Shown here piece after piece: positions 1,947 through 45,955 of a stretch of DNA of 61,915 nucleotides. The first letter of the stretch is position 1; each line of letters begins with the position of its first letter. The position numbers and the translations under genes were made by a program. The notes under the pieces were generated by a model, which saw only the letters and a list, made by a program, of their open reading frames with translations, was not told the origin of the DNA and made no database searches. Origin of the DNA: Minisyncoccia bacterium (GTDB taxonomy: Bacteria > Patescibacteriota > Minisyncoccia > Phycocordibacterales > UBA918); the NCBI GenBank assembly GCA_041742075.1, contig JBGSJJ010000011.1, forward strand, positions 1 to 61,915. The letters run 5' to 3'.

Positions 1947-1950
1947 CTTG

Positions 1951-2083
1951 CTGCCGGTCAGGGAATCTCTCTTGTTACACAAGCAGTATACCTTTTGGCT
2001 ATATTTTCGCTACGCTCAATCTAGCTCAAAAGCTTTTCGAGCCCCTGACGCGAGTGACATATTAGTCACTCGCTATCTGGCAG
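1951..2083 (-). repeat. tRNA-tail mimic element, type 1 (Gln copy; candidate structured RNA)
   Basis: The minus strand reads, in order: CTGCCAG (anti-acceptor), hairpin GCGAGTGAC-taatat-GTCACTCGC, GTCAGGG (anti-T-stem), CTCGAAAAG, P2 CTTTTG...CAAAAG, GTATACTG, hairpin CTTG-TGTAA-CAAG, then CCCTGACCGGCAG. That last segment copies the tRNA-Gln 3' end with one change. Confidence 0.8.
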
Positions 2084-3097: not shown

Positions 3098-3099
3098 AC

Positions 3100-3729: not shown

Positions 3730-3734
3730 AGTAA

Positions 3735-4772
3735 TTATTTGTCTCCGAGTAAATCGACTAAGGCAATCTCAAGTGGTAGTTGTGGTAGGCTCATTTTTCC
3801 GGTCTGTTCGGCTGACTCAAGGAGACGAAGTAACATGGCGGAGTTGATAGGTGAAGCTTTTTCTTCAGCTAGCTTTTGTATCTGAGCTTGGTCAGCCTGA
3901 GAAAACGGTGCTAGCAAAAGCTCACTACGCGTTGGTGTATGTCTTAAAAGCATCACGGCGCGAACTCGCTCAAGTAAAAGCTTAATGAGTAGTTTAATGT
4001 CGACATTACTTTGTACTGCCTCCTCAAGTGACTGGAGTGCTGCGCCGAGGTCTTTGCTACCAAGCGCACCTAAAAGTCCTGCTAAACTAGAACTTTTTGG
4101 TGCGCCGATAATCCCCGCTACTTCGTCACTACTCCCGATTGTATCGGTTGAGGCCAAAATAACTTTTTGTAGCACTCCGAGTGCATCACGAAACGAGCCG
4201 TCGGCAGTGATAGCAATCAGGTCGGCTGCGTCAGGCGGCAGCGTAAAACCTTCACTTTTTGCCACGTCTATCACGTGCTCGGCCAGAACCGCTCGCCCGG
4301 GTGAACGAAACCGAAACACCTGACAACGGGAAAGAATAGTATCAAGGAGCTTCTCTTCTTCGGTAGTCGCTAGGATAAACACCACATGTGCTGGTGGTTC
4401 TTCAAGTGTTTTAAGGAGGGCATTAAATGCCTCCTTGGTGAGCATATGCACTTCGTCGATGATGTACACCTTCCGTTCACTTTGGTACGGCAGAGTGTGT
4501 ACCGCTTCACGGAGTTCACGAATATCATCAATCCCCCGATTACTCGCGGCATCAATCTCGTAGATGTCGACATCGCTCGTCCCGATAGCACTCGCAAAAA
4601 TTCGTGCTAACGTAGTTTTACCAGTTCCTCTCGTACCAGAAAACAGGATGGCGTGCGGGATTTTATTTTTCTTTATGGCTCCTTCGAGTACCGAGACAAT
4701 GTGTTCTTGGTTTCGGACCTGTGAGAAGGCACTCGGGCGATATTTTCGATAGAGTGCAGTGTATTCAGTCAT
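3735..4772 (-). CDS. dnaX: DNA polymerase III subunit gamma/tau (short form)
   Basis: Walker A GTRGTGKTT, IIDEVHMLT, sensor SRCQVFRF. Confidence 0.92.
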   Translation of the reverse strand: MTEYTALYRKYRPSAFSQVRNQEHIVSVLEGAIKKNKIPHAILFSGTRGTGKTTLARIFASAIGTSDVDIYEIDAASNRGIDDIRELREAVHTLPYQSERKVYIIDEVHMLTKEAFNALLKTLEEPPAHVVFILATTEEEKLLDTILSRCQVFRFRSPGRAVLAEHVIDVAKSEGFTLPPDAADLIAITADGSFRDALGVLQKVILASTDTIGSSDEVAGIIGAPKSSSLAGLLGALGSKDLGAALQSLEEAVQSNVDIKLLIKLLLERVRAVMLLRHTPTRSELLLAPFSQADQAQIQKLAEEKASPINSAMLLRLLESAEQTGKMSLPQLPLEIALVDLLGDK

Positions 4773-4816
4773 AGCTCAAACAGTATAACAAATCATTTAA
4801 GACCGTCACGTTTCAA

Positions 4817-5668
4817 CTACTTTAGTGTAGCCTGAACGTACTCCCGGAGTTCTTCGATGTCGGTTACCAGGTTTTCACTCCCTAAGACGATGTACCCAAA
4901 AGAGCGTTTATCTCCAGATACCTCTTCTTCAAAAATAACAGCTGCCGTCCTTCCGGCTTCGTGAGTGTACCCATGTTTCCCACCAGCATAGCCAGGGAGG
5001 TCTCTAAGCGGACTATTATTCATCCAGGTAGTTTGTGCGCCTACGTATTTAGTTAGTTTGGTGATATCAATTACATGTGGGTACTCATCATAAATAGCTT
5101 TAAGAATGATTGAAAGCGAACGAGCCGAAGATACGTTTCCGGACGAAAGTCCGGAGGCATCTGTGAAAGCAGTGTCGGCTATGCCGAGGGTAGAAACAAA
5201 TTCGTTCATAGCCGATGGCATATTTTTATTAAGTGTTCTCGCTTGGACTGATGACGCATCATTTGAAGACTCTAGTAAGGCTGGGAAAATAAGTTCGTTT
5301 AGTGTATAGGTATCTCCTACTTTTAGATGACCAGCTAAACCTTCAGTAGCTACGTCTGACTCTTGAATTCTAGTCTCAGTTTTCAAATCTGCTACTTTAT
5401 AGAATATCGTAGTACTGATAAGCTTTGTCACTGACGCAATCGGAAGTACTTTCTCTGACTGAAATGACACTACTTCATTACCACTTTCAAGTTCAAAAAC
5501 ATAGTACGCTGAAGCGCTGACAGTTGGCGCTTCGTGCATCACTTCAATAAGTGAAGCCGACTGGGCTTCCACACTGGTAACCGAAAGCGGGCTCGGTAAA
5601 ACGGCGAGGTAAAAAAATACCGCCAGTAAGCTGGCTCCGAGAGTGCCGATGAGAAGTATTTTGGGCAT
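4817..5668 (-). CDS. serine-type D-Ala-D-Ala carboxypeptidase (PBP5/S11-like)
   Basis: SxxK (ASVTKL), SxN (ESSND) and a KTG-like GKHGYT. The start was moved to MPKILLIG because the terminator hairpin at 5686-5710 overlaps the longer ORF. Confidence 0.8.
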   Translation of the reverse strand: MPKILLIGTLGASLLAVFFYLAVLPSPLSVTSVEAQSASLIEVMHEAPTVSASAYYVFELESGNEVVSFQSEKVLPIASVTKLISTTIFYKVADLKTETRIQESDVATEGLAGHLKVGDTYTLNELIFPALLESSNDASSVQARTLNKNMPSAMNEFVSTLGIADTAFTDASGLSSGNVSSARSLSIILKAIYDEYPHVIDITKLTKYVGAQTTWMNNSPLRDLPGYAGGKHGYTHEAGRTAAVIFEEEVSGDKRSFGYIVLGSENLVTDIEELREYVQATLK

Positions 5669-5735
5669 ATATCTATCATAACAAATGAGGGACGCCAAAG
5701 GCGTCCCTCATTTGCACTACTTGAAGTTCTACCAA

Positions 5736-6221
5736 CTACTTCTTGCTGACTGTCTTTTTTGCAACAGCTTTCGTGACGACTTTTTTCGCTGATGATTTTA
5801 CTACCGCTTTCTTGGCTGATGCTTTTTTAGCAGTTACTTTGGCAACTACTTTTTGTACGGCAGCCGCTTTCACTACTCCGCCTTTCATCAAATCTTGCCA
5901 ATTTGCCATCATCTCATTCTTAAAATCTTTGGCTTCTGCTTTTGATAGTTTTTGAACTTTTGTATAGGTATCAGTAACACCGTTTACAAGAGTACTGAAT
6001 TCCTCTTGAGTGATCTCTTTAGCGTTTTCAAGAGCCTCTAGCACTTCTGCCTTAGCCTTAAGTGACCAACTCTTTACCTTCTTGCGGTTCTTAGCTGCAT
6101 CCTTACTACCATACAGAAAATACGCGCCTGCGGCTGTCACCGCTGCCGCTGTAAGTCCGACTCCAATACTAAGTTTTTGGGCATTTGAAATTTCAACTTT
6201 TTTTGCTGGTTTTTTAGCCAT
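5736..6221 (-). CDS. Lys/Ala-rich protein with an N-terminal TM segment (hypothetical)
   Basis: Low-complexity AKK/KKA repeats at both ends and one hydrophobic helix. Confidence 0.55.
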   Translation of the reverse strand: MAKKPAKKVEISNAQKLSIGVGLTAAAVTAAGAYFLYGSKDAAKNRKKVKSWSLKAKAEVLEALENAKEITQEEFSTLVNGVTDTYTKVQKLSKAEAKDFKNEMMANWQDLMKGGVVKAAAVQKVVAKVTAKKASAKKAVVKSSAKKVVTKAVAKKTVSKK

Positions 6222-6241
6222 ACTATTTAAATTATTAGGAG

Positions 6242-6553
6242 TTAATCATCCTCGTCGGTTTTGGTTGTTCGTTTAGACCGAGCTCTACCTCTTGGAACAA
6301 AGAACCGTATAAGTTGTGAGACGAGACTTCCCTCCATCACGAAGGTTCGAAGTTGTGACACATCTTCAGCAATCATCTCACTTCCTGCTTCGAGCCGGTC
6401 GATAATCGAACGAATTTTTTTCACAATCTTTAGTACTTGATACAAAATCAAGCAGACAAGAATAGTGAGTACGACGATCCCAACACTTGCAATGAAGAAA
6501 AAAATGTTTGCTTGTAGTATCTCGCTCATACGTATTAGTGTACCAAGTATCAC
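6242..6553 (-). CDS. small membrane protein (hypothetical)
   Basis: One strong TM helix (FFFIASVGIVVLTILVCLILY) followed by an amphipathic tail. Confidence 0.55.
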   Translation of the reverse strand: MILGTLIRMSEILQANIFFFIASVGIVVLTILVCLILYQVLKIVKKIRSIIDRLEAGSEMIAEDVSQLRTFVMEGSLVSQLIRFFVPRGRARSKRTTKTDEDD

Positions 6554-8983: not shown

Positions 8984-10246
8984 TTAGGCAATCAAGTCTT
9001 TTCCGAAGTATGGGCGAAGTGCTTCCGGCACCACAACCGTACTATCTGCTTGCTGGAAGTTTTCAATCAGTGACACCAAGATACGCGGTGTCGGAATAGC
9101 GGTACAGTTAAGCGAGTGGGCGTAGCGCATCTTCCCTTCAGCGTCTTTATAGCGGATATTGAAACGCCTTGTCTGGAAGTCATGAAAGTACGAAGCAGAA
9201 CTAATTTCTCGATACTTGCCTTCAAGTGGTACCCAAAGTTCGATGTCGTACTTCTTCACCTGACCCTGGCCAATGTCTCCTCCGCAGTTCAGTACGGTGT
9301 GGTACGGAATACCGAGTGATTCAATAAACTCTTCGGTGTTGCGGTTGATTTCTTCATGCAAACGCACTGACGTCTCGTGTGAAGCTTCACAAAGCACCAC
9401 TTGCTCAACTTTGAAAAACTCATGGACGCGGATAAGTCCCTTGGTGTCTTTACCATGACTTCCCGCTTCCCGCCTATAGCAAGGTGAAAACGCTAAGTGC
9501 TTAATCGGAAACGCTGACTCAGGAATGATATCGTCAGCGTAATAGCCCATAGTAGAGACTTCACTGGTACCAATCAGGTAATCATTGTCTTGCGTGTTAT
9601 AAACATCTTCGGCATCATTTGGCAGGTGGCCCGTACCATAGAGGTTACTCTTGCGCACAATAGTGGGACCAAGCATTGGAGAAAAGCCCTTCTTGTCCCA
9701 AAACGCATTGGCGTAGTTCCAGATAGCCCAAGAAAGACGAGCTCCGTCACCGATTAAATAATAGCCTCGGAAGCCGTGCACCTTGGTACCGCGGTCAAAG
9801 TCAACCATCTTGAGTTTGGTCATGAGTTCAACATGGTCCTTCGGCGTGAAGCTGAAGTTTGGCTTCTCTCCCCACACCTTCACCTCTTCGTTATCAGCAT
9901 CACTGTCGCCATCGGGAACCGACATATCAGGAATGTTTGGCACCTGGAGCATCAGCGTCTGCCACTCCTCCATCACTGGCTTTAGTTTTTCCTCATCAGT
10001 TTGGATTTCAGTTTTTAACTGCTGCATTTCCGCAATCAGTTGATGACGAATAGCGCTATCACTCGCTCCGGCAATTTCGGTAGAGACTTTGTTCTGCTCA
10101 GCTTTTTTTGTCTCGAGCGAAGACATGATTTCTCGTCGTTCTTCGTCGAGTGTCATGAGTCGATCAAGGTCAACCTTGATTTTCTTTTTTGTTGCCGCCA
10201 TCTTCACGATGTCGAGATTTTCCCTGATGAATTTGATATCGAGCAT
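8984..10246 (-). CDS. serS: seryl-tRNA synthetase
   Basis: N-terminal coiled-coil arm (MLDIKFIREN...), class II core (FSPCYRREAGSHGKDTKGLIRVHEF, GQGQ). Confidence 0.95.
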   Translation of the reverse strand: MLDIKFIRENLDIVKMAATKKKIKVDLDRLMTLDEERREIMSSLETKKAEQNKVSTEIAGASDSAIRHQLIAEMQQLKTEIQTDEEKLKPVMEEWQTLMLQVPNIPDMSVPDGDSDADNEEVKVWGEKPNFSFTPKDHVELMTKLKMVDFDRGTKVHGFRGYYLIGDGARLSWAIWNYANAFWDKKGFSPMLGPTIVRKSNLYGTGHLPNDAEDVYNTQDNDYLIGTSEVSTMGYYADDIIPESAFPIKHLAFSPCYRREAGSHGKDTKGLIRVHEFFKVEQVVLCEASHETSVRLHEEINRNTEEFIESLGIPYHTVLNCGGDIGQGQVKKYDIELWVPLEGKYREISSASYFHDFQTRRFNIRYKDAEGKMRYAHSLNCTAIPTPRILVSLIENFQQADSTVVVPEALRPYFGKDLIA

Positions 10247-10400
10247 AGTAGGTAAATATTATAGTTATCTATTATACACAAGCCTCTCATACAATCTAGG
10301 TAGTGCAAACACAGAAATTAATTCTACCTATCATTAATGATAGGTAGCAATTTTGTCGATAGTTTCTTTGCCAAGGCCTTAGAAATGATACAATTTCAAA

Positions 10401-17279: not shown

Positions 17280-17377
17280 GGAGGGGGTTGAAAACCTTTT
17301 GAGATAGATTTGACTGAAAGGAAAATATATCCAAAAGGTGTACTGAAGTAGTAAACTTCGACCCCCTCCCGAGGCAC
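17280..17377 (+). repeat. tRNA-tail mimic element, type 1 (Leu-CAA copy 1)
   Basis: GGAGGGGGTTGAA (antisense of the T-loop/T-stem), P2 CCTTTTG...CAAAAGG, GTGTACTGA, hairpin GAAGT-agtaa-ACTTC, then TTCGACCCCCTCCCGAGGCACAAA. The last segment is 24 nt identical to the tRNA 3' end. Confidence 0.85.
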
Positions 17378-17440
17378 AAATTGACAAGTCGTAATTAATG
17401 GTGAATCGGGAGGCACAGCTTTTTTGCTAAAAAAAGCGTT

Positions 17441-17520
17441 GTGCGGGGTCGAAGCCGTTGCCAGTTGCCTGCAACGTCAACGGGTACTGAAACTGTAAGT
17501 TTCGACCCCCTCCCGAGGCT
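17441..17520 (+). repeat. tRNA-tail mimic element, type 1 (Leu-CAA copy 2, short core)
   Basis: GTGC-GGGGTCGAA, P2 CCGTTG...CAACGG, GTACTGA, hairpin GAAAC-TGTAA-GTTTC, then the tail CGACCCCCTCCCGAGGCT (one mismatch to the tRNA). Confidence 0.8.
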
Positions 17521-17600
17521 CAAAATTTAAAGTCGGACTTCTAATTGCACTTTAGTGAAAATACTTTACACTTTGACCTGAACTGAACAGGAGAATAAGT

Positions 17601-19912: not shown

Positions 19913-20023
19913 TGCGAGGTCCACGAGGATTCGAAAAGCTTTTGAGATAGATTTGACTGAAAGGAAAATATATCCAAAAGGTATACTGGTCATGTAATGA
20001 CCGAAACTCCTCGTGGGCCCGCA
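19913..20023 (+). repeat. tRNA-tail mimic element, type 1 (Trp copy)
   Basis: TGCGAGGTCCACGAGGA is a near-complete antisense of the tRNA-Trp 3' end. It is followed by TTCGAAAAG, a core 44 nt identical to the Leu-CAA copy, TATACTG, hairpin GGTCA-TGTAA-TGACC, then TCCTCGTGGGCCCGCA (identical to the tRNA tail). Confidence 0.85.
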
Positions 20024-20096
20024 GTAGCAAACAAAACAAACCAGAAGCGCGAGCTTCTGGTTTGTTTTGTTTAGAACGAGCACTTCTGCTCGTTCG

Positions 20097-20278
20097 GCTA
20101 CTGCGGGAGCCGGAGCGGTGTGAGCTTGCGAACCGCGAGGCGGGGTCGCGAGCGCGAGTGGCGACGAGCGACTTGTGACCGCAAGGGAGGTCCACGAGGA
20201 TTCGAAAAGGTTAACTAATATTTTGTGACGCAGGAGCAAAAATATTGATAACCTGTACTGATACTGTAAGAATCGAAA
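20097..20278 (+). repeat. Variant tail-mimic element: inverted copy of the preceding tail, a GC-rich junction module and a type 1-like core, but no 3' tail
   Basis: GCTACTGCGGG (20097-20107) is the reverse complement of CCCGCAGTAGC (20018-20028). It is followed by AGCCGGAGCGGTGTGAGCTTGCGAACCGCGAGGCGGGG, then GGTCCACGAGGATTCGAAAAGG, P2 GGTTA...TAACC and TGTACTGA...TGTAA. Confidence 0.65.
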
Positions 20279-20287
20279 TACTAAATT

Positions 20288-21553
20288 TTAGCTACCATAA
20301 ATCGAGAAGTGTGGGGCTGATATCCAATCACCTAAAACTTTGATATCAGCAGGATTAACTCCGCCAGCTACCAGCTGGTCACGTTGACCACTTGTTACTA
20401 CTTCATACACAGGACGAAGGCCATTCGCTCGAGCAGCATTAATGACTGTAAGTACTTCTTGAGCGTTCATCCCACCCGCCTTACTATAGTCAACGCACGT
20501 TCCATTCATATGGCACTGACTTTTGTGTACCCGTGACGGAGGCATCGCTTCTGTTACCCGCGAACCGATTACCCCAGCTGACACAATATCGGAATGAAAG
20601 GCATTAAATCTACCAACCAAATCGGGAGCAATTGAACAGCTATTTGAATTTGAGCAGGGTACGTTAAGTGGTACACAGGTGCCACCACTGCAACCCTGAC
20701 TCTGAATAGGGTCTTCATCAGTACCACCACCTGGGTCAGTGGTACAGAAGCCACCAATGGTAGAATTCCCTGTCGGCGGAGTCCAAACTCCTCTCATAAA
20801 TCTACAAGTCTCAACGGCTCCGCTACAATCAGCTACCGCGTCAATTCCGCCACCAGCAAGACACGTAATCGGTACTTGATTTGGTCGTCCCACTGCCCCT
20901 TCACGAATACACGTTACCTGGTTATTTTCTGAGATGTCGGCATCGAGGCGACCTCGAATACACGCTTCTACTGCCGGCTGACAGTCAAAGGAGTTAGTCA
21001 AAATAACAAAGAGACATTGAGTGGTCTGATTCAGTTGACCGACTGGCCCTTCTTCAAAGTTAAACCCAAGGTCTTCAAGCGTTGCTCGAGTATTATTAAA
21101 GTCAATTCCATTCCTGTCACTCTCGACTGGTTCCGGTCGATAGATCTCCCCACACTCAACTGGTTCCCAAACACCATAATCACTTCCCGTTAAAGCTTTC
21201 ATGATAGTGTCAACAATTGTCCACGCAGCGACCAGTAGTATCAATCCAATCATGGCATTAACAAAATACGTCTTGGCGTTTTCATACGCCGACTGGTTCC
21301 CGGCTGAAGTCACGAGACCAAAACCAGCATACGCCAACACCATCACAATGAGCAGAATCGAAATGGTAACAATCCAGTCAACGATGACGTCAAACAACTC
21401 GACAAATAAACAAAAATTACAATCTGTTCCACTACAGGTCACTAAGCCGGCAGGTCCGCTGTCTTGCCCAAACGCTATACTTGGAAATAAAAATAGAAAA
21501 AAAACTAACACTGAAGGGATTTTCATAAGATTGTATAATTTTATAAAATTCAT
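20288..21553 (-). CDS. secreted/membrane fusion protein: pilin-like (VirB2/TrbC-like) N-terminal domain, Cys-rich linker and a LAS/M15-like zinc peptidase C-terminal domain
   Basis: Signal peptide, CSGTDCNFC, two TM helices and YGVWEPVEC. The C-terminal HMNGTCVD (H-x6-D) and APHF resemble VanY/M15 D,D-peptidases. Confidence 0.6.
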   Translation of the reverse strand: MNFIKLYNLMKIPSVLVFFLFLFPSIAFGQDSGPAGLVTCSGTDCNFCLFVELFDVIVDWIVTISILLIVMVLAYAGFGLVTSAGNQSAYENAKTYFVNAMIGLILLVAAWTIVDTIMKALTGSDYGVWEPVECGEIYRPEPVESDRNGIDFNNTRATLEDLGFNFEEGPVGQLNQTTQCLFVILTNSFDCQPAVEACIRGRLDADISENNQVTCIREGAVGRPNQVPITCLAGGGIDAVADCSGAVETCRFMRGVWTPPTGNSTIGGFCTTDPGGGTDEDPIQSQGCSGGTCVPLNVPCSNSNSCSIAPDLVGRFNAFHSDIVSAGVIGSRVTEAMPPSRVHKSQCHMNGTCVDYSKAGGMNAQEVLTVINAARANGLRPVYEVVTSGQRDQLVAGGVNPADIKVLGDWISAPHFSIYGS

Positions 21554-21580
21554 AAAAAATATTTATTTTAATCTAAATCG

Positions 21581-22093
21581 TCACGGTTGCTTGCAAAACG
21601 TTAGATCAAATCTTCTACCTTGATAATCAGGATTCACTGAGTATGGCACACCTATATATACATTAAGCTTGCAGGCGTCGACATCTGAAATCTGAAGTAG
21701 TTGCGAAAAGTACCGGCTTGCCAACTCATGATTTAAAGCTATTGGCTCATTTTCAATAGCGATTGAAAATGAGTTATCTATCTCTGAATAAAGAAGTGAA
21801 AATGGAGCATCTGGGTCCCCTACCTCTCCTCTAAGGTGATAAAAGCCTTCTCCAGGTTTTGTAACTTCAGGCAGTGTGCGTATATCAAAGATTTCTATCA
21901 CTCCCGCATCGGTAGGTATAAGGGTTGTGTATGGATCTTCACTTTCTGGACGTTCTACAGTACCAAGATCTTCTAGATCTGTATACCCTGAATTTTTATC
22001 TTTCTGAGAAGTATCCATAAAATATTGAAAAATAATTGTTCCTAAAACAAGAACGGTGATAGTACCAAGAGCTAAGATTAGTATTTTTTGCAT
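21581..22093 (-). CDS. membrane-anchored hypothetical protein
   Basis: MQKILILALGTITVLVLGTIIF anchor. The start was set at the internal Met so it does not overlap the upstream gene. Confidence 0.5.
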   Translation of the reverse strand: MQKILILALGTITVLVLGTIIFQYFMDTSQKDKNSGYTDLEDLGTVERPESEDPYTTLIPTDAGVIEIFDIRTLPEVTKPGEGFYHLRGEVGDPDAPFSLLYSEIDNSFSIAIENEPIALNHELASRYFSQLLQISDVDACKLNVYIGVPYSVNPDYQGRRFDLTFCKQP

Positions 22094-22101
22094 ATTTAAT
22101 A

Positions 22102-23229
22102 CTATTGTAACCCACAACCAGCCGCTGTTGACCATGGTCTCCAGCTATTTCCGGCCTCACGATAAATACGAGCTCCGTTTCGAATGTTACAGGCATGATT
22201 TTGTGCAGCTTCAGCACACTGCTGGTACAAGGCTTCGTTTATTACCACAGCGTCATAGTTACGACCAGAAAAAGCGTCGAGACAACGCATTGTAGCTGGG
22301 TAGCCGGGACAGTCTCGGAGTTCATGTACCGTGAGATTGATCTGCATTGGTCCAAAAGAGAAGGCTCTTCCGTCTACTCGCATTACGTCTGTTCTACTCA
22401 CTCCTGAAGCACCGCACGAACTTTCTGCTTCAATAATACACTGAGCATTACCAGTGTTGCTTCCAAAAAATGGTCCAATAACAGAAGTACTGCAAGCCCC
22501 ACCCGCTGATCGATCAGGGGGCCGTCTTCGGTCTGAAGGAAGTACTGAAACATCATTGGTTATAACACACTCAAACTGTCCAAGACCTTCGCCTGCTCTA
22601 ATTTGCCCCCCTTCCGCACGACACCAGTCAATACAGCCACCCGGAACAGCTGTAACTTCATCTGGACAATCTATCACATCAAAACCTCCCGCAATAAGCC
22701 TGTCTCTTGGCGTAACGCGAAGTTCATCGATAATCCAACCGCAATTAAGTCTTTCAAATTCAGGCGGTGGTAAGTCAGGATTGGTACAAGAAACCAAGTC
22801 AATACCCTGTCTATCACTTTCAAACTCCTGAGGTTCATAAGCACTCTGGTCAACACACTCAACACTATTCCACACGCCATACTCTCCCTCCCTGAGCAAA
22901 CCTTTCAAGACAGTATCAACAATAAGCCAAGCCGCGAGTGCAATTACAATCCCGAGCGCAAGGTTTGAAATAGTTTTCTTAATAAACGTTAAACCATTAT
23001 CATTACCCATTGAAGTAACCGAAACCAGTCCAGCGTACACAATTGCCACCCCAGCCAAAATAGCGAGCATACTAATGAGCCACGTCATCACGTTGCTAAT
23101 GAGTGGAATAATGTGACAGGTCTGACACGCTTCCTCACCGGGATTTCCACATGGCACGAGATTAGCTGAGAAAACAGACTCTGGGACAAGAGCACACGCT
23201 ACTAAAAATATGAACGCGATATACCGCAT
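22102..23229 (-). CDS. secreted/membrane fusion protein: pilin-like N-terminal domain and a lytic-transglycosylase (SLT/lysozyme-like) C-terminal domain
   Basis: Signal peptide, CGNPGEEACQTC, two TM helices and YGVWNSVEC. The C-terminal IIEAESSCGASG...SFGPMQINL matches the E-S...G-x-MQ pattern of family-1 lytic transglycosylases. Confidence 0.6.
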   Translation of the reverse strand: MRYIAFIFLVACALVPESVFSANLVPCGNPGEEACQTCHIIPLISNVMTWLISMLAILAGVAIVYAGLVSVTSMGNDNGLTFIKKTISNLALGIVIALAAWLIVDTVLKGLLREGEYGVWNSVECVDQSAYEPQEFESDRQGIDLVSCTNPDLPPPEFERLNCGWIIDELRVTPRDRLIAGGFDVIDCPDEVTAVPGGCIDWCRAEGGQIRAGEGLGQFECVITNDVSVLPSDRRRPPDRSAGGACSTSVIGPFFGSNTGNAQCIIEAESSCGASGVSRTDVMRVDGRAFSFGPMQINLTVHELRDCPGYPATMRCLDAFSGRNYDAVVINEALYQQCAEAAQNHACNIRNGARIYREAGNSWRPWSTAAGCGLQ

Positions 23230-23631: not shown

Positions 23632-23728
23632 CTTTTTAAAATACCCTTATTTATAGGGGTATTTTGTTGAGACAGAACAACTGGTTAGAACCTTTGCTAT
23701 ATTTAATCTTTTGGACTAAGATTTGGAC

Positions 23729-24382
23729 ATGAAAAGTGATTACCAAGAAAAACTCACCTCCCTATCCTCTCACGTTTCTAAAACTCTATTAAAATGGCAG
23801 GGTTTTAAAAAAAGAAGAAACGCATTCAATCGAAAATTGGACGGCGGAATAGTCCAAATAATAAGTTTCCAAGCTGGCAGTTACGAGCCATTTGCTATAG
23901 ACGTCCCAAACATGAACTACTTCCCTAACAGTTTATATGGAAAGTTTACAATCAACTTAGGAATATACATTGATGATTTACAAATTTTCATGCATGGTAA
24001 GAAACCAAAAGATTTTGTAAACGAATACGATTGCCAATTGAGAACGAGAGCTTCACACTTAGTTACCTCAACAGATGAATGGATTTCAATTGATAAAGAT
24101 TTCGATAAATTATCGAAAGAAACTACTAATCTAATTGAAAAATATGCACTACCTTTTCTAGATAGGTTTAATTCAAGAGAAAAAATAGAAGAATATTTTA
24201 AAACTGAAGGGACTACATTAACTAATATCCCTTTGGCATATTTAGCAATAATGTGCCATAAAGATGGTAACAATGAAGCAAGTTCTTCCTACATGAAAAA
24301 ACACATCGACTCAATCGTAAATCATGAAGGTCACAAAGAATATATGTTTGCGTTGGCTAAAAAACTTGGTCTGGATATTTAA
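23729..24382 (+). CDS. hypothetical protein (217 aa), AT-rich; the N-terminus resembles DUF4304-type proteins
   Basis: LLKWQGFKKRRNAFNRKLDGGIVQIISFQ follows the GFKK-x-GN-x-F-x-R...I-x-FQ pattern I recall for DUF4304 (from memory, unverified). The ORF is bracketed by GGTTAGAAC (23683-23691) and GTTCTAACC (24424-24432). Confidence 0.5.
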   Translation: MKSDYQEKLTSLSSHVSKTLLKWQGFKKRRNAFNRKLDGGIVQIISFQAGSYEPFAIDVPNMNYFPNSLYGKFTINLGIYIDDLQIFMHGKKPKDFVNEYDCQLRTRASHLVTSTDEWISIDKDFDKLSKETTNLIEKYALPFLDRFNSREKIEEYFKTEGTTLTNIPLAYLAIMCHKDGNNEASSSYMKKHIDSIVNHEGHKEYMFALAKKLGLDI

Positions 24383-24494: not shown

Positions 24495-24630
24495 GTGTGC
24501 CGAGAGTGAGTGACTCAATGTCACTCACGTAAAGATTCGAAAACCTTGCCTACTATTTTATGACGTTAGGAAATAAAATAGTGACAAGGTGTACTGAAGC
24601 TGTAAGCTTCGAAACTCCTTCTCGGCGCAC
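24495..24630 (+). repeat. tRNA-tail mimic element, type 1 (Tyr copy)
   Basis: GTGTGCCGAGA (anti-acceptor), hairpin GTGAGTGAC-tcaat-GTCACTCAC, GATTCGAAAA, P2 ACCTTG...CAAGGT, GTGTACTGA, hairpin GAAGC-TGTAA-GCTTC, then CGAAACTCCTTCTCGGCGCAC. Confidence 0.85.
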
Positions 24631-24635
24631 ATAAC

Positions 24636-24664
24636 TTGACAATACACTAGAAATGGTGTATTGT
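24636..24664 (+). promoter_or_regulatory. sigma70-like promoter (TTGACA, 17-nt spacer, TATTGT) 6 nt after the duplicated tail
   Basis: TTGACA 24636-24641, TATTGT 24659-24664. It points at ORF 24847-25236. Confidence 0.55.
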
Positions 24665-26059: not shown

Positions 26060-26264
26060 AAGGTTCGAACCTTCTCCAATCTATACAGATTCCTTACAGG
26101 AACTGTCCACTCATTGGACCTTATGTTTCGCTTCACTTACAAAAGTTCCTCAATGAGTCTTGCGACAAGCTCCCAGCTTGTCTCACTATTCAGGTTGTAT
26201 GATATTTTTGCAAAATATCGACAACTTCTTGCGACAGTTTCCCAAACTGTCTCACCCGGCGCAC
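26060..26264 (+). repeat. tRNA-Tyr T-arm copy, two tandem type 2 modules and an acceptor-tail copy
   Basis: AAGGTTCGAACCTTCTCC; then CCTTACAGGAACTGT, P2 ACTCATTG...CAATGAGT, CTTGCGA, hairpin CAAGCT-ccc-AGCTTG and TCTCA; then hairpin TTGTATGATATTTT/AAAATATCGACAA, CTTGCGA, hairpin CAGTTT-ccc-AAACTG, TCTCA and CCCGGCGCAC. Confidence 0.75.
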
Positions 26265-36473: not shown

Positions 36474-36836
36474 ATGTCTGACCGTCAATTAAAAGTCCAG
36501 CAGGAACTTCAATCGCATATCGCGACCTTTATTCAACATGAGGCCAACACCAATCCCCTCATTACCGTGACTCATGTCGACATCTCACCGGAGTTTAAAA
36601 ACGCAACCGTGTATTTCACGACTATTCCAGCCGAAAAAGAAAATGACGCCCTCATCTTTCTCAAGCGTGAAGGAACAGCGCTTCGTACCTACGTAAAAAA
36701 CCACATGCGTATAAAACAAATCCCCCACTTCTCTTTTTCTGTAGACTATGGTGAACGTCACCGTCAACACATCGACGAGCTTGTACGTGAGACCGGCACC
36801 CCAGCCAGCGAGTATTTCGCTGAACCTGAAAAATAG
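36474..36836 (+). CDS. rbfA: ribosome-binding factor A
   Basis: Directly follows infB. VTHVDISPEFKNATVYF pattern. Confidence 0.8.
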   Translation: MSDRQLKVQQELQSHIATFIQHEANTNPLITVTHVDISPEFKNATVYFTTIPAEKENDALIFLKREGTALRTYVKNHMRIKQIPHFSFSVDYGERHRQHIDELVRETGTPASEYFAEPEK

Positions 36837-36902
36837 CTCAATCGGGCTTCGATTCCCTTTGACCAAAATAAAAGGCCTGACATAAAGTCTGGCCAATCAT
36901 TT

Positions 36903-36989
36903 TGGTGCCGGGAGCGGGAATCGAACCCGCACGGCCGTGAGGCCACAAAATTTTAAGTCTTGCGTGGCTACCAATTACACCATCCCGGC
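36903..36989 (-). tRNA. tRNA-Leu (anticodon TAA), class II, CCA encoded
   Basis: The minus strand reads GCCGGGA...CAAGA-CTTAAAA-TTTTG...GCGGG-TTCGATT-CCCGC-TCCCGGC-A-CCA. Confidence 0.9.
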
Positions 36990-37062: not shown

Positions 37063-37134
37063 GGCCGGGTGGCGAAGTGGTAACGCAGCGGTTTGCAAAA
37101 CCGACATGCGCGGGTTCAATTCCCGCCCCGGCCT
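37063..37134 (+). tRNA. tRNA-Cys (anticodon GCA)
   Basis: Acceptor GGCCGGG/CCCGGCC, loop TTGCAAA, T-arm GCGGG-TTCAATT-CCCGC. Confidence 0.9.
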
Positions 37135-37154
37135 CAGCAACGAAGTTGATGAAT

Positions 37155-37254
37155 GGCGGGAATTGAAGACCTTGCGAGACAAGTTTGACTGAAAGGAAAA
37201 CATGTCCACAAGGTGTACTGAAACTGTAAGTTTCAATTCCCGCCCCGGCCTCAG
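37155..37254 (+). repeat. tRNA-tail mimic element, type 1 (Cys copy; minimal, no intervening terminator)
   Basis: GGCGGGAATTGAA (exact antisense of TTCAATTCCCGCC), P2 ACCTTG...CAAGGT, GTGTACTGA, hairpin GAAAC-TGTAA-GTTTC, then TTCAATTCCCGCCCCGGCCTCAG. The last segment is 23 nt identical to 37115-37137. Confidence 0.85.
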
Positions 37255-37325
37255 GGATTGATGTTTACGACAGTGCAATTTTAAACTTGTATTTTAGCGC
37301 ATATCTTGTACACTTTGCGCTACAT

Positions 37326-37611: not shown

Positions 37612-37650
37612 CAAAGTAAAAGCTAGGCCTTGTGTCTAGCTTTTTGCTTT

Positions 37651-37852
37651 GTGCGTGAGCTTGCGTGGGGTGGACTTGAAAACCTTGTGTGACAGATTCG
37701 ACCAGAGGAGAATATGTCCACAAGGTGTACTGAACCTGTAAGGTTCAAGTCCTCTTCTTACAGAAGCTGTATACCTTATCAGTATTCCTCGCTTCGCTCA
37801 GAATACTAGATAAGGTCTTGCAAAGTGCTCCCAGCACTTTTCACCCGCGCAC
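37651..37852 (+). repeat. tRNA-tail mimic element, type 1 (Leu-TAG copy 1), with its tail split by a nested type 2 module
   Basis: GTGCG-TGAGCTTGCG-TGGGGTGGACTTGAA, P2 ACCTTGTG...CACAAGGT, GTACTGA, hairpin GAACC-TGTAA-GGTTC, CAAGTCCTCT, then an 88-nt insert, then CCCGCGCAC. Confidence 0.85.
37756..37843 (+). repeat. type 2 module nested between the T-stem copy and the acceptor copy of the duplicated Leu-TAG tail
   Basis: TCTTACAGAAGCTGTAT, P2 ACCTTATCAGTATT...AATACTAGATAAGGT, CTTGCAA, hairpin AGTGCT-ccc-AGCACT, TTTCA. Same 88-nt length and same first 22 nt as 45644-45731. Confidence 0.8.
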
Positions 37853-37880: not shown

Positions 37881-38025
37881 GTGCGCGGAGCAAACGATAG
37901 TTTGCGGAGAGGACTTGAAAAGATGGAGTATATCGCACGGAGTGAAATAGTCTGGGAGACTATTTCATCGAGTACGATACGACATCTGTACCGCTCCTGT
38001 AAGGAGAAAGATTCCTCTCCCACAC
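37881..38025 (+). repeat. tRNA-tail mimic element, type 1 (Leu-TAG copy 2, divergent core, degenerate tail)
   Basis: GTGCGCGG, hairpin GCAAAC-gata-GTTTGC, GGAGAGGACTTGAAAA (exact antisense of the tRNA 3' end), P2 GATG...CATC, TGTACCG, hairpin CTCC-TGTAA-GGAG, then ATTCCTCTCCCACAC. Confidence 0.7.
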
Positions 38026-38060
38026 AAAATTAAAAGCCAGGCTTTGTGTCTTTTAATTTT

Positions 38061-38078
38061 GTGCGTGAGCTTGCGTGG
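38061..38078 (+). repeat. Truncated 5' piece of another Leu-TAG element (GTGCGTGAGCTTGCGTGG)
   Basis: Identical to 37651-37668. It is cut off by the 3' end of trhO. Confidence 0.6.
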
Positions 38079-41156: not shown

Positions 41157-41504
41157 CTATACGGTTACGGTAAGACCAAACGTGCCAGCGGCAATACGCA
41201 GAATGGCGATAGCGGAAAGCATAATCACCATACCAATCACACCATAAAGCATATGGCGTTGCCCTTGTGAGCGGTCACTATAGCTACTGGCACCTTTAAT
41301 GTATTCAAACACGCCAAACATAAACACCGCAAAAGCGATTCCGAGCATTAGGGTAATCAGTGGGAAAACCAAGTTTGCTTCAAGACGCCCAACAAACTCT
41401 TGGGAAGCAGCGCGCGCTCTATCTTCGGCACTTTCAGCCAGCAAAAGAGAAGGGTACAAGAAGATTGTGAGCAAAAGTAATCGTAGGTGTTTCATAAATA
41501 TCAT
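41157..41504 (-). CDS. pilin-like small membrane protein (signal peptide and two TM helices; VirB2/TrbC-like architecture), divergent member
   Basis: Same architecture as the five paralogs downstream of it: signal peptide, TM, charged loop (KGASSYSDRSQGQRH), TM. Confidence 0.55.
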   Translation of the reverse strand: MIFMKHLRLLLLTIFLYPSLLLAESAEDRARAASQEFVGRLEANLVFPLITLMLGIAFAVFMFGVFEYIKGASSYSDRSQGQRHMLYGVIGMVIMLSAIAILRIAAGTFGLTVTV

Positions 41505-41561
41505 TAGCTAGTCCTTTAATTGTACTACACAGGAGATTTATAGTGACTCTTGTACACAAGT

Positions 41562-41921
41562 TTAGAAACCGGTAGTAGGGCCTTCTCCAAGGGAAGATAC
41601 AAATGAATCCAATATAAAATTAACAACACCCCAGATGGCTACTATGAGGACCAAACCAAGTACCCCCCACACCATAAGCGCCTTACCACTCTCCCGTGCC
41701 TCTTGATTGTCTGCGCCCGCAATAAAGTACCGAAAAATACCATAACAAAACACAAACACAGCCAGAGCAAATACGAGTGGTAGCAGGGTACTAGAAATAA
41801 AATCAGTAGCGCTCAAAAAAACCCGATTCAAACCTCCGAGATTATTAGCAGTTTGAGCAAAAGCGAGACTTGGAACAAGCAACGTAACTGTACCAAAAAG
41901 ACTACGTGGGATATGCTTCAT
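41562..41921 (-). CDS. pilin-like small membrane protein (paralog)
   Basis: AFAQTANNLGGLN...LLPLVFALAVFVFCYGIFRYFIAGADNQEARESGKALMVWGVLGLVLIVAIWGVVNFI. Confidence 0.65.
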   Translation of the reverse strand: MKHIPRSLFGTVTLLVPSLAFAQTANNLGGLNRVFLSATDFISSTLLPLVFALAVFVFCYGIFRYFIAGADNQEARESGKALMVWGVLGLVLIVAIWGVVNFILDSFVSSLGEGPTTGF

Positions 41922-42057
41922 ATATTATACCTACATTAAAGCATAGTCTAAGCAGACTGTAACAAACAATCTGAACACAACTTAAAACTCTTCTGCGAAA
42001 GCAGAAGAGTTTTAAGTAACAATTTTAGCCGGAAGGCGAAAGAGTTATAGTTTATAA

Positions 42058-42447
42058 CTATGCACCTGGAACAGTTGGAAGGTTTACACCTTGCCCATCG
42101 AGAGCAGTACCGCCTGTTGCGCCACTTAAGATATCGATCACGAGGTTTACAATACCCCATACCGCTACAATGAGTACTAGACCGAGGATACCCCAGATCA
42201 TGAGACTCTTGCCACTCTCTCGAGCTGCTTCGTCTCCACCACCAAGGATGAAGTACTTGAAGATACCGTATACGAATACGAGTAGAGCGAGTGCAAAAAC
42301 AAGTGGTAGAAGTGTGCTTGAAACAAAGTCTGTAATCGCAAGGAAAAAGTTGTTAAGACCACCAAGATCATCTGCTGTTTGGGCAAACGCAAATACTGGG
42401 AATAAGAAGACTGCTACAGGTGCTAAATAAGAAAATGATTTTTTCAT
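42058..42447 (-). CDS. pilin-like small membrane protein (paralog)
   Basis: AFAQTADDLGGLN...LLPLVFALALLVFVYGIFKYFILGGGDEAARESGKSLMIWGILGLVLIVAVWGIVNLVI. Confidence 0.65.
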   Translation of the reverse strand: MKKSFSYLAPVAVFLFPVFAFAQTADDLGGLNNFFLAITDFVSSTLLPLVFALALLVFVYGIFKYFILGGGDEAARESGKSLMIWGILGLVLIVAVWGIVNLVIDILSGATGGTALDGQGVNLPTVPGA

Positions 42448-42575
42448 AAACTAAATAAATATTAATAATTCCGACTTACTGGTAATGATAGCACCAAATT
42501 TTACGTAAACAAAGGCTCATTACACTGACTGTGTATAAGCTGTAATGGAGATTACAGGGAAAAGTGGGCTTGAAA

Positions 42576-42965
42576 CTAGACTGGCATCGCAGGCACATTT
42601 ACCGTGTTGTCAAACGGAGTAGCGCCGGTAGAGCTGTCAAGAACACTGATCACGAGGTTTACAATCCCCCATACTGCCACTATAAGTACCAAACCAAGGA
42701 TACCCCAGATCATGAGACTCTTGCCACTCTCTCGATCATCTTCGTTGGCGCCACCAAGGATAAAGTACTTGAAAATGCCGTAGACAAAGGCTACGAGAGC
42801 AATCGCAAACAGAAATGGCAATATGGTACTACCAAGAAAAGCGGTGATATTAAGGAAAAACGTGTTGAGTCCACCAAAAGCGGCAGCATCGCCTTGAGCA
42901 GCAAACACCATAAGGGGTGAAAGAATTGAAGCAATAACAGCTAAATGTAAAAATGTTTTTTTCAT
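42576..42965 (-). CDS. pilin-like small membrane protein (paralog)
   Basis: Start set at MKKTFLHLAVIAS. Contains ...ILPFLFAIALVAFVYGIFKYFILGGANEDDRESGKSLMIWGILGLVLIVAVWGIVNLVI. Confidence 0.65.
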   Translation of the reverse strand: MKKTFLHLAVIASILSPLMVFAAQGDAAAFGGLNTFFLNITAFLGSTILPFLFAIALVAFVYGIFKYFILGGANEDDRESGKSLMIWGILGLVLIVAVWGIVNLVISVLDSSTGATPFDNTVNVPAMPV

Positions 42966-42991
42966 ATAAGTATAATTATGGTAATCGTTGC

Positions 42992-43246
42992 CTAGTAAAA
43001 GAGACTCGACCGCAAGAGTTGCACCAGTCCCCAAAAGCCAAACATAACCACAAGACCAATAATAGTCGCTAAGAGCACCTGCTTCCCTTCTGAGACTTTT
43101 TTCTCGTCTCCACCATGGATAATCCAGATATTGATGATTTGCCATACTGCAAAAGCAAACGTAACGGCAAAGATAAGATACACGAGTGAATTCATTATCT
43201 CTAAGAAACGAGCGACGAGTCCAGCAAAGGTAGTTGGGGTTGGCAT
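42992..43246 (-). CDS. pilin-like two-TM protein without an obvious signal peptide
   Basis: LVYLIFAVTFAFAVWQIINIWIIHGGDEKKVSEGKQVLLATIIGLVVMFGFWGLVQLL. Confidence 0.55.
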   Translation of the reverse strand: MPTPTTFAGLVARFLEIMNSLVYLIFAVTFAFAVWQIINIWIIHGGDEKKVSEGKQVLLATIIGLVVMFGFWGLVQLLRSSLFY

Positions 43247-43254
43247 ATACGTAC

Positions 43255-43611
43255 TTAGCCTGTCATGGCGGTTATAAGGTTACTCACGATAGTAATTATA
43301 CCGTAGGCACCAAGTATGAGTAATCCCCCGATGATGGCGTAGAGCAAGGCTCTGTTAGCCTGGGTGATAGTCTGTTCATTACCGCGAGCCGTTACGTACA
43401 AAAAGCCAGCGTAAATAATGAAAAAAACAATAATCGGTGTTGCAAAGACGATGACGATCGCAATAAGCGCCATGAAGAAGTCTTGAATGTTGGTGGCGAT
43501 AAGCGGACTCTCTATCTGCACGGCGTAGACATGAGACGCTAGCGTAAGAGCTGTTAAAAGAATGCTAAGTTTTGTATACAGCCTCACAAAATTGTTTTTA
43601 AGCAGTAGCAT
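43255..43611 (-). CDS. pilin-like small membrane protein (divergent paralog)
   Basis: Signal peptide, then IVFATPIIVFFIIYAGFLYVTARGNEQTITQANRALLYAIIGGLLILGAYGIITIV. Confidence 0.55.
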   Translation of the reverse strand: MLLLKNNFVRLYTKLSILLTALTLASHVYAVQIESPLIATNIQDFFMALIAIVIVFATPIIVFFIIYAGFLYVTARGNEQTITQANRALLYAIIGGLLILGAYGIITIVSNLITAMTG

Positions 43612-45479: not shown

Positions 45480-45643
45480 TTCTTTAAGTATACCTTGTCT
45501 GTTCGTAAAAAAACTGCACCGGGTGTGTAAAGAGCTTTGCTTATATAGTTTGCCCGACACGGATAGTGCCAAGCTCCCGCAGGACGCAAACGCGGTTCCT
45601 CCCTAGGCATATTTTCCTAAGCAAGACGCCAAGCGCCATTTCT

Positions 45644-45731
45644 TCTTACAGAAGCTGTATACCTTGTCAGTATTTTTCATTCTTCAAAATACTAGGCAAG
45701 GTCTTGCGAAGTGACATTGAATCACTTCTCA
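45644..45731 (+). repeat. type 2 module, orphan copy with no tRNA nearby
   Basis: TCTTACAGAAGCTGTAT, P2 ACCTTGTCAGTATT...AATACTAGGCAAGGT, CTTGCGA, hairpin AGTGA-cattgaa-TCACT, TCTCA, then CCCTGGTGGG. Confidence 0.75.
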
Positions 45732-45955
45732 CCCTGGTGGGTTGTGTAAATCACAGAGCGAAGCGACGCGCTGTGCGTATGAAAATCATAGTCACTTTGT
45801 TCCTTGATTTACACAATGATTTTCATACATAGAAAATTCTATTCCTAATGGATTTTCTATGCAGCTATTTATTATTTCCCTTTGTCCAGCGATTTTCTCT
45901 GGGGAGAAAAAATCGGGACATAAGTTCGCAATAGTCGCTACGCTCCTTTGCTTAC

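Follow-up and report, generated by a model that had tools for sequence, protein, structure and literature searches.

What is the small insertion that stands directly behind the tRNA-Cys gene of a Minisyncoccia bacterium, and how could it have come there? The gene lies in a stretch of 61,915 nucleotides (nt; contig JBGSJJ010000011.1, hereafter the window), which is ordinary cellular Patescibacteria DNA encoding TopA, GyrA, ClpB, a short IF-2, DprA, FtsZ/FtsA and many pilin paralogues of type IV secretion systems (T4SS). An exact 23-mer, TTCAATTCCCGCCCCGGCCTCAG, occurs at the 3' end of this transfer RNA (tRNA) gene and again downstream of it, and no third site was found with up to three mismatches allowed (0 matches in shuffled sequences, 0 expected). 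The first copy starts in the T-loop and ends 2 nt beyond the tRNA end called by ARAGORN. The 94 nt between the copies (37138-37231) consist of a 17-nt linker followed by a core, and the whole insert behind tRNA-Cys comes to 117 bases. This arrangement had been described in the original prediction, which had also stated that the first 13 nt of the core are the reverse complement of the start of the repeat and that the copy holds no cargo, terminator or open reading frame (ORF). All of this was borne out: the match of GGCGGGAATTGAA to the repeat is exact, no ORF of at least 80 amino acids lies within the insert, and neither terminator-like nor promoter-like sites were predicted in it. Given that the linker lacks a terminator, the unit can be co-transcribed with tRNA-Cys. 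Folding of the unit as RNA gave -40.3 kcal/mol (z = -4.68 against shuffles). A TTGATG motif stands a few nt 3' of the CAG at both repeat copies, and weaker similarity extends beyond the exact 23-mer.

The insert is one member of a family of units with a shared plan, which runs from a 5' arm of helix P1 through (G)AAGACC or AAAAGC, a variable P2 hairpin, AGGU, G/A-UACUG and helix P3 (a 4-bp stem with a UGUAA loop) to the 3' arm of P1, which is the copy of the tRNA end. In the tRNA-Cys unit, the final AA of GGCGGGAATTGAA forms part of the conserved junction AAGACC. On the tRNA-sense strand this plan folds into a three-way junction, the conserved terminal module (about 65-90 nt) of what we discuss below as a cassette. 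P1 is specific to each locus, and at tRNAs the antisense arm pairs with the copied segment from the T-loop to the 3' end. The built-in antisense match to the target, which had caught the eye in the sequence, is thus real over its 13 nt but is no free guide, being the 5' strand of a covarying helix.

Support for the fold came from alignment A1. Across the three helices, standard pairs filled 80.0% of cells (62.6% when shuffled), changes on both sides of a pair were seen in 243 cells (89 when shuffled), and the covariation score was 0.458 against 0.161; none of 500 shuffles matched the observed values, and slid controls were all far lower. Every one of the four P3 stem positions showed all four Watson-Crick pair types among 106 copies, whilst the unpaired positions of A1 were invariant or nearly so (AA.A in J1/2, UAC.G in J2/3 and the loop UGUAA). 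Compensatory changes also separated individual loci: by eye in the P2 of tRNA-Cys between the window and a second filled locus (L224), and in the P3 of unit B at tRNA-Leu(TAG), which reads CTCC/GGAG in the window and CCCC/GGGG in the closest relative (L231). In the L231 units at tRNA-Lys and tRNA-Leu(TAA) the P3 loop is GGUAC in place of UGUAA. The GUA that it retains is complementary to the UAC of the junction GUACUG, and the change adds a possible fourth pair, which hints at a tertiary pairing between loop and junction. A four-way version of the fold was seen at L003, L030, L047, L048, L049, L056, L064, L065, L067, L098, L108 and L119, where an extra small hairpin, a(a)GCGUAMUCGCgGUCC, stands between the T-loop remnant and the T-stem 3' strand of the duplicated tRNA end.

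The core pattern AGGTRTACTGNNNNTGTAA was searched in GTDB species-representative genomes, where it occurred at no fewer than 120 loci. P3 was perfect in 93 of the 122 matches listed, and nearly all of these perfect matches were titled Saccharibacteria, Paceibacterota/Parcubacteria, Nomurabacteria, Kaiserbacteria, Zambryskibacteria, Minisyncoccia, Patescibacteria group or unclassified bacterium. A covariance model built from 45 units (R1) matched 103 times (E <= 0.001), the matches being spread over 100 loci of other Patescibacteria genomes. As a negative control, the 2.9 million viral contigs of IMG/VR were searched with the core pattern; of the 96 matches three had a perfect P3 and only one was genuine (L141), a near-absence that argues against a phage origin, which we rejected. 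Rfam 15 reported tRNAs only when the window was scanned at the gathering threshold, permissive scans (E up to 10 and up to 1) of the locus and eight related loci placed nothing on the units, and a full-text literature search returned no description of such an element family. We are apparently dealing with a widespread, undescribed family of small folded insertion elements in Patescibacteria, the candidate phyla radiation (CPR).

The relation of these elements to tRNA genes was then quantified. A tRNA on the same strand lies within 350 nt upstream of 54 of the 99 copies that had enough upstream sequence; for 2 copies the tRNA is on the opposite strand only, and 43 have none. The stretch homologous to the tRNA begins in the T-loop (about -21 to -24) or in the T-stem 3' strand and ends no more than 5 nt from the tRNA 3' end in 22 of 33 well-matched copies, with a tail to +60. 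Some copies have no repeated segment; where there is one, its length is usually 21-24 nt, with extremes of about 15 and about 100 nt, the longest duplications (about 100 nt) comprising the tRNA end, a terminator and the 5' arm. The unusually long target duplication that had been seen in the tRNA-Cys copy was not supported in those terms, as the repeat is not the fixed-length product of a staggered cut and usually starts at the T-loop and stops at the end of the tRNA. Each antisense arm follows its own tRNA, even where the T-loop is unusual (GTCAGCA at L110). Fuller units, such as that of L141, also have a terminator, a 5' strand able to pair with the 3' strand of the acceptor and with one or two bases past it, and a hairpin, often with the loop CUGGGAG. 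Over all fetched loci an antisense arm was found downstream of 76 of 186 tRNAs; behind it stood the GUACUG core at 48, a different core with duplication at 16, and nothing recognisable, the arm alone, at 12.

Orthologous loci were collected by scanning metagenomes with a tRNA-Cys 25-mer and by taking contigs that encode close homologues of the flanking rhodanese-family gene; their synteny was confirmed by IF-2, RbfA, the tRNAs and the rhodanese-family gene. The original prediction had proposed to look for an allele without the insert, and L231, whose flanking protein is 87% identical, has one: an identical tRNA-Cys in which CCTCAG runs directly into GAAACAATC. L225, L228 and L232 are likewise empty at tRNA-Cys, whereas L224 and L229 are filled and L221/L223 carry an unrelated core (family II, see below). 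The same tRNA-Cys allele is empty in L225 and filled in L229, two loci of a single metagenome. Neighboring tRNAs differ as well. In the window tRNA-Lys is empty, tRNA-Leu(TAA) has an arm-only remnant (36836-36860) and tRNA-Leu(TAG) has units A and B, whereas in L231 tRNA-Lys is filled, tRNA-Leu(TAA) is followed by four identical tandem units and tRNA-Leu(TAG) by unit B only. All four tRNAs are empty in L232 (82%), and in L233 (77%), where tRNA-Cys is not on the contig, tRNA-Lys is empty, tRNA-Leu(TAA) filled and tRNA-Leu(TAG) followed by the family II core. A copy at a new site had been the other sign of mobility to look for, and the tRNA-Lys unit, present in L231 and absent from the window, is one; together with the empty alleles it favours insertion/deletion polymorphism. 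These comparisons establish gain and loss of the elements at tRNA 3' ends among close relatives, and they also bear on geometry. Since L231 has unit B alone at tRNA-Leu(TAG), unit A of the window is an extra segment on the tRNA-proximal side; and since the sequence past the tRNA-Lys duplication of L231 matches that directly past tRNA-Lys in the window, the distal copy keeps the original flank.

Within the window, R1 and a reading downstream of each tRNA gave at least 13 family units, which are found at six of its nine tRNAs (one each at tRNA-Gln, tRNA-Tyr and tRNA-Cys, two each at tRNA-Leu(CAA), tRNA-Trp and tRNA-Leu(TAG); Table 1). R1 recovered all the tRNA-linked units together with three copies that do not adjoin a tRNA. 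The 5' arm of every tRNA-linked unit is complementary to T-loop and T-stem sequence of the tRNA it stands behind; a 3' copy of the tRNA end is present in most units and missing from unit B at tRNA-Trp. The reversed core-only copy in the tRNA-Leu(TAG) array interrupts the duplicated tRNA end of unit A precisely where T-stem and acceptor meet. Its hairpin has the loop CUGGGAG, and it has the J2/3-P3 sequence TATACAGCTTCTGTAAGAAG in common with a distant copy (45642-45734). The latter is located in the spacer between gyrA and a methyltransferase gene, and the degenerate copy at 26090-26257 upstream of an NYN-domain gene, both on the minus strand.

Table 1. Units of the family and their parts in the window. 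Positions are those of the window; bits are scores of model R1 unless stated otherwise.
Feature	Position	Strand	Basis or remark
tRNA-Cys(GCA), intact, host gene of the unit	37063..37135	+	ARAGORN; Rfam tRNA 65.4 bits
Direct repeat copy 1, from the T-loop through the 3' strands of T-stem and acceptor to the discriminator and next bases (...TCAG)	37115..37137	+	exact 23-mer
Linker, 17 nt, without terminator	37138..37154	+	sequence; terminator prediction
P1 5' arm, GGCGGGAATTGAA	37155..37167	+	perfect complement to nt 1-13 of the repeat; covariation of P1 (alignment A1)
P2 hairpin ('type 1' variant), closing pairs ACC...GGU conserved	37169..37214	+	folding, alignment, compensatory changes relative to L224
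Junction J2/3, GTACTG, near-invariant in the family	37215..37220	+	
P3, 4-bp stem AAAC/GTTT, invariant loop TGTAA	37221..37233	+	four Watson-Crick pair types per stem position
Direct repeat copy 2; 37234-37244 is the P1 3' arm	37232..37254	+	R1 match 37150-37257, 89.6 bits
Family copy 3' of tRNA-Gln	1950..2049	-	81 bits
Copy A 3' of tRNA-Leu(CAA), exact tRNA 3' duplication of 21 nt	17280..17377	+	93.7 bits
Copy B at tRNA-Leu(CAA), P2 different	17443..17521	+	52.2 bits
Copy A 3' of tRNA-Trp	19921..20022	+	86.7 bits
Copy of the unrelated family II core (see text)	20096-20179 (about)	+	
Copy B at tRNA-Trp, without 3' duplication	20192..20279	+	55.6 bits
Copy about 0.9 kb 3' of tRNA-Tyr, with a DUF4304 ORF (23723-24382) between as cargo	24529..24630	+	90.3 bits
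Degenerate b-class copy, two GTGAG-hairpin-CGCAAGA modules	26090..26257	-	28.3 bits
Unit A at tRNA-Leu(TAG); 88-nt insert (37756-37843) splits its 3' duplication; not in L231	37669..37852	+	
Core-only permuted copy, reversed, inside the unit A duplication of tRNA-Leu(TAG)	37756..37843	-	R1 positions 17-86, 46.5 bits
Unit B at tRNA-Leu(TAG); orthologue of the sole L231 unit there; compensatory P3 change	37906..38025	+	
tRNA-independent 'b-class' copy: GGGTGAG, hairpin, CGCAAGACC, P2, AGGT ATACAG, P3	45642..45734	-	47.1 bits

The tRNA-independent form of the element has the order GGUGAG, hairpin, CGCAAGACC, P2, AGGU-GUACUG and P3, and in the alignments looks like a circular permutation of the tRNA-linked form with a hairpin in the place of P1. 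Many such copies lie between perfect, locus-specific inverted repeats of 16-30 bp that are often terminator-like. The duplicated tRNA end, by which the original prediction had defined the element, does not mark every copy: the same core also occurs without any tRNA, in permuted form and at the tips of long palindromes.

Some copies carry cargo. At L093 a 5.2-kb copper-resistance island (700-5600) lies between tRNA-Ser and the core and encodes a CopA-type P-type ATPase with an HMA domain, a CsoR-like repressor, a cupredoxin and a DsbD-like protein; no integrase was seen in it. L022 has 1.3 kb of cargo. Other copies form arrays. At L022, L090, L224, L229 and the tRNA-Leu(TAG) array of the window, the block of tRNA end, terminator and 5' arm flanks the inserted cores on both sides. 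Units within one array have identical segments from J2/3 through P3 to the duplication and differ in P2, and such arrays are probably mosaics shaped by recombination between conserved segments. Nesting was seen at L103, where one unit lies directly past the P3 of another with a 19-nt repeat.

The layout of arm, core and duplication is not tied to the three-way junction, for at least one unrelated core recurs in it. This family II core reads GAA-AGRCGGAG...GGGGUCGCG-hairpin-AUYYGUGAC and, besides the copy in the window, was seen at L020, L065, L086, L109, L221/L223, L222 and L233; its 3' hairpin also stands behind many tRNA-independent three-way-junction copies. The tRNA-Cys of L226 is followed by yet another, uncharacterised core. 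That other cores occupy the same layout suggests that the architecture is tied to insertion at tRNA ends, and not to one RNA.

No enzyme was found to travel with the elements. About 50 window ORFs were scanned, and no recombinase, reverse transcriptase or transposase was among them. Of the ORFs near copies, 436 (within 2.5 kb) were clustered all against all and 150 (within 3.5 kb) were searched with Pfam; both gave only housekeeping families and synteny, such as IF-2, ParB, MiaA and methyltransferases, with no recurring transposase family. No IntI integrase or attI site was seen in the window or the fetched loci. The only recombinases encountered were two large serine recombinases in L141, an IMG/VR contig, next to another tRNA with an arm-only remnant. 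They lie at 4576-5877 and 9015-10370 of that contig, of which 4313-4434 is also of note; their neighbors are a ParB-like gene, a small RelA/SpoT-like gene and a pair resembling type III restriction-modification genes. The tRNA-Ser of L141 has, besides its arm-only remnant, a foreign tRNA 3' fragment ending in CCA, and the contig also matches the Rfam LOOT RNA (56.3 bits). What is established, then, is a small-element family specific to Patescibacteria, with a conserved three-way-junction fold, target-derived arms and no enzyme gene of its own.

How such an element could reach tRNA ends is a matter of weighing several readings. The one that we favour tentatively, giving it somewhat less than an even chance, is that the tRNA-Cys insert represents, in minimal form and without cargo, a Patescibacteria-wide family of non-autonomous integrative cassettes, whose folded end mimics the tRNA target and which use a recombinase acting in trans. 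P1 pairs the copy of the tRNA end with its built-in complement, so that the folded end of the element presents a duplex replica of its own target. A site-specific recombinase encoded elsewhere would join this end, acting as a recombination site either as single-stranded DNA or with the assistance of RNA, with the part of the tRNA gene that runs from T-loop to 3' end, in a reaction that may be likened to integron attC x attI or CTX-phage attP x dif recombination. The incoming cassette would restore the 3' end of the tRNA, often bringing a terminator, and the original 3' end would be displaced downstream to become the second repeat. New cassettes would enter beside the tRNA and push older ones distally, and homologous recombination between conserved segments could later shuffle, amplify or delete units. 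The restored tRNA, the original flank past the distal copy, the tRNA-proximal position of the extra unit, the cassette-like arrays and the other cores in the same layout all support this reading.

Among known systems, the element would by analogy come closest in its working to an integrative cassette that targets tRNAs and has a folded site resembling attC or that of CTX. With tRNA islands of the P4 type and the tycheposons of Prochlorococcus (bioRxiv 10.1101/2020.12.28.424599) it shares insertion at the 3' part of a tRNA that is restored by an element-borne copy, the original 3' end left as a direct repeat, and tandem arrays with variable cargo. A direct repeat of the tRNA 3' part around the insert, with the tRNA intact, is what we observed; an element-encoded tyrosine or serine recombinase is what we did not find in the window and neighborhoods. 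The element differs further in that no integrase lies in or near any of more than 100 copies, that most units measure 100-170 nt, and that it has a three-way-junction module and a target-complementary arm, with no T-stem-like arm before the distal repeat. In integron attC and CTX-phage attP (XerCD) sites structure is likewise conserved above sequence, the duplex formed by a folded inverted repeat imitates the target or serves as its partner, and the enzyme acts in trans; the arrays of the element resemble integron arrays. Its target is, however, the tRNA segment from the T-loop to the 3' end and not attI or dif, its specific three-way junction has invariant unpaired nucleotides, and no link to IntI or Xer was seen. 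By inspection, an integron attC site proper was rejected: RYYYAAC ... GTTRRRY is absent, the arms ending in ...TCGAA followed by GACC and beginning TTCGA..., with C as the fourth base and a partner strand that does not read RYYYAAC.

Several points weigh against the folded-end cassette. No recombinase for it was found in the window or the scanned neighborhoods, and its central step is conjecture. Repeats of about 15 to about 100 nt and mosaic arrays (L090, L022 and tRNA-Leu(TAG) in the window) are equally well explained by homologous recombination, and the empty sites could stem from deletion between direct repeats instead of a never-filled state. The bases before the distal repeat belong to the variable P3 stem and not to a T-stem-like arm, so there is no classical symmetric core site of a tyrosine integrase, and this candidate was dropped. 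The invariant junction and loop nucleotides, the permuted variant and the end of the duplication at the mature tRNA 3' end fit a function at the RNA level at least as well. How a core lineage gains an arm for a new tRNA is left unexplained; compensatory evolution and template switching within the hairpin are only suggestions.

It is therefore worth asking whether the units are first of all a structured non-coding RNA, perhaps a new self-cleaving ribozyme or a protein-binding RNA, produced by read-through from the tRNA or a neighboring gene. We consider this the main and a serious rival, somewhat less likely than the cassette, and both could hold. The flanking helices would be processing handles, with tRNA-like arms for RNase P/RNase Z at tRNAs and long perfect stems for RNase III elsewhere, and copy number would change by ordinary recombination between repeats. 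Near-invariant junction and loop nucleotides beside covarying stems are what such an RNA would be expected to have, and the permuted topology, in which P1 is capped as a hairpin (GGUGAG-hairpin-CGCAAGACC), speaks in the same direction. Natural circular permutation is known in hammerhead and twister ribozymes, which also have conserved junction nucleotides, a three-way junction and many dispersed copies in repeats. The elements nevertheless match no known ribozyme family or Rfam ribozyme model and have no known cleavage site, and inspection of A1 spoke against a hammerhead or other known ribozyme core, with junction strands (AAG, GUACUG and none) whose lengths and sequences misfit these cores, the CUGANGA/GAAA core of the hammerhead included.

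The duplication mostly ends at the mature tRNA 3' end, many units (L141) owe a tRNA-like outline to a 5' strand that pairs with the acceptor 3' strand, and the L231 loop variant keeps a GUA able to pair with the junction UAC. In 50 of 59 units the sense strand gave the more stable fold (mean -33.1 kcal/mol, against -29.7 for the antisense strand, p = 3e-8), with more G-U pairs. This energy bias fixes the strand and cannot tell RNA from single-stranded DNA; G-T pairs are hardly more numerous than A-C mismatches in the aligned helices (counts on the ungapped alignment). The missing terminator ahead of the tRNA-Cys unit would allow transcription, but most units stand directly behind a strong intrinsic terminator that leaves no room for a promoter. 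Where no tRNA is near, 12 copies are on the same strand as the neighboring gene and 9 on the opposite one, a lack of orientation bias that rests on crude ORF calls, and one copy is antisense to a tRNA operon. The outer arms, perfectly Watson-Crick over 16-30 bp, resemble recent copying at the DNA level. A reduced genome would have no need of dozens of dispensable, strain-variable copies, and an RNA explains neither the copies with cargo nor the use of the same architecture by other cores.

A bolder reading, which we regard as doubtful, makes the three-way junction itself a new functional nucleic acid that recognises tRNA genes, either as a catalytic RNA (a new, naturally permuted ribozyme that cleaves itself or ligates) or as a guide-bearing scaffold of RNA or single-stranded DNA whose target-complementary arm programs an unlinked recombinase. 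The bridge RNA of IS110 and the omega RNA of IS200/IS605 elements are comparable, in that a structured RNA encoded at the end of the element contains sequence matching the insertion target. Here, in contrast, no recombinase or TnpB/IscB gene accompanies the element, and the target-matching segment is paired in the fold and is neither looped nor a free 3' guide. Were this reading true, the element would be a programmable mobile element without a protein gene, specific to ultra-small bacteria.

Less probable again is a non-autonomous transposon served by an unlinked transposase that recognises hairpins of single-stranded DNA (HUH, IS200/IS605-like, or IS1397-like into hairpin loops). The core alone would be mobile and land at the tips of palindromes, the long arms growing later by template switching within the hairpin. 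This would account for the core-only matches (R1 positions 17-86), one of them inserted in reverse inside another unit, for the tRNA-independent copies between perfect 16-30-bp inverted repeats of local, often terminator-like sequence, for the copy nested past another unit's P3 at L103, for recurrent breakpoints at the boundary of arm and P2 (L022, L090) and for the lack of a fixed target-site duplication. No transposase was found in any examined neighborhood, however, and a direct duplication of the tRNA 3' end is not expected of HUH or IS200-type insertion; the presence of that duplication and the absence of TnpA/TnpB nearby set the element apart from IS200/IS605. Nor was the insertion simply into the T-loop, as the tRNA is intact. 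The original comparison with a MITE (miniature inverted-repeat transposable element) stands as far as size goes, this being a small, cargo-free insertion of a repeated family bounded by a duplicated tRNA 3' segment. It fails as a classification, since the arms differ at every locus, following the local tRNA 3' end or another local palindrome in place of conserved terminal inverted repeats, and since no related autonomous element encoding a transposase was found among the 436 neighboring ORFs or the 150 scanned with Pfam. The same holds for other small repeats. MITEs, repetitive extragenic palindromic and bacterial interspersed mosaic elements (REP/BIME), Correia elements and IS1397-type insertions are, like the present family, small, non-coding, multi-copy, intergenic and strain-variable, some of them lying in hairpins or terminators, but the arms here derive from the target, and there is neither a fixed target-site duplication nor a known parent transposon.

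That the units are inert scars, functionless attR remnants of prophages or islands left by a conventional integrase, or chance local duplications, is very improbable and effectively excluded: direct repeats of tRNA 3' ends are the classical footprint of integrase islands and L141 does have its two large serine recombinases beside a neighboring tRNA, but the core, conserved and covarying in more than 100 copies of several Patescibacteria lineages, hardly occurs in viral contigs and has no integrase nearby, and scars leave the 13-nt antisense arm and its equivalents at other tRNAs unexplained.

Two further candidates were rejected. The first was an intron of archaeal type or of group I in the T-loop: the tRNA is complete without the insert, which is too small for a group I intron. 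Group-I-intron-like inserts, identified by eye (S-element-like, AAGATATAGTCC), do interrupt tRNA genes at L110 (about 6080-6430) and L090 (minus strand, about 5050-5330), with a LAGLIDADG-looking ORF near the one in L110; they look quite unlike the element, which is still present at the 3' ends of both interrupted tRNAs. The second was a tRNA-primed retro-copy: the duplicate at tRNA-Cys ends in genomic flank (...TCAG) and not in TCCA, and the homology of other copies runs into downstream DNA.

Patescibacteria genomes are tiny, yet at least 13 copies occupy one window, which amounts to a considerable investment or burden of parasites. Close relatives differ in their tRNA loci through these elements, some of which bring cargo such as the copper-resistance island. 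In a group where few mobile elements can be recognised, they are likely to be one of the main ways in which strains come to vary. If the cassette reading is right, an end that replicates its own target with no enzyme linked to it would be an addition to the few recombination systems with folded sites (attC, CTX attP); if the elements are RNA-based, they would represent a new class of ribozyme or guide. Model R1 can serve as an annotation tool for Patescibacteria genomes, and the elements could be strain markers or integration sites in the newly tractable Saccharibacteria.

Some smaller features of the window copies were also recorded. The remnant 3' of tRNA-Leu(TAA) (36903-36989), which lies on the minus strand and consists of the arm AAAGGGAATCGAA and the start of P2, is truncated at the end of an RbfA-like ORF. 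At the distal end of the tRNA-Leu(TAG) array, 38026-38078 (plus strand) holds a second terminator and 5' part (...GTGCGTGAGCTTGCGTGG) with no core behind it, which repeats the segment directly following tRNA-Leu(TAG) (37613-37668). A -35-like hexamer, TTGACA, often lies no more than about 10 nt past the duplicated tRNA end (about 24635-24645, about 1935-1945 on the minus strand and about 17381-17390), and also at many other loci (L031, L042, L056, L081, L109); at tRNA-Gln it makes a near-perfect TTGACA-17-TATATT promoter toward the next gene. The T4SS-pilin/TrbC-like paralogues are arranged in tandem, five of them at 41157-43611 and two larger ones beside the tRNA-Trp array at 20288-23229, all on the minus strand.

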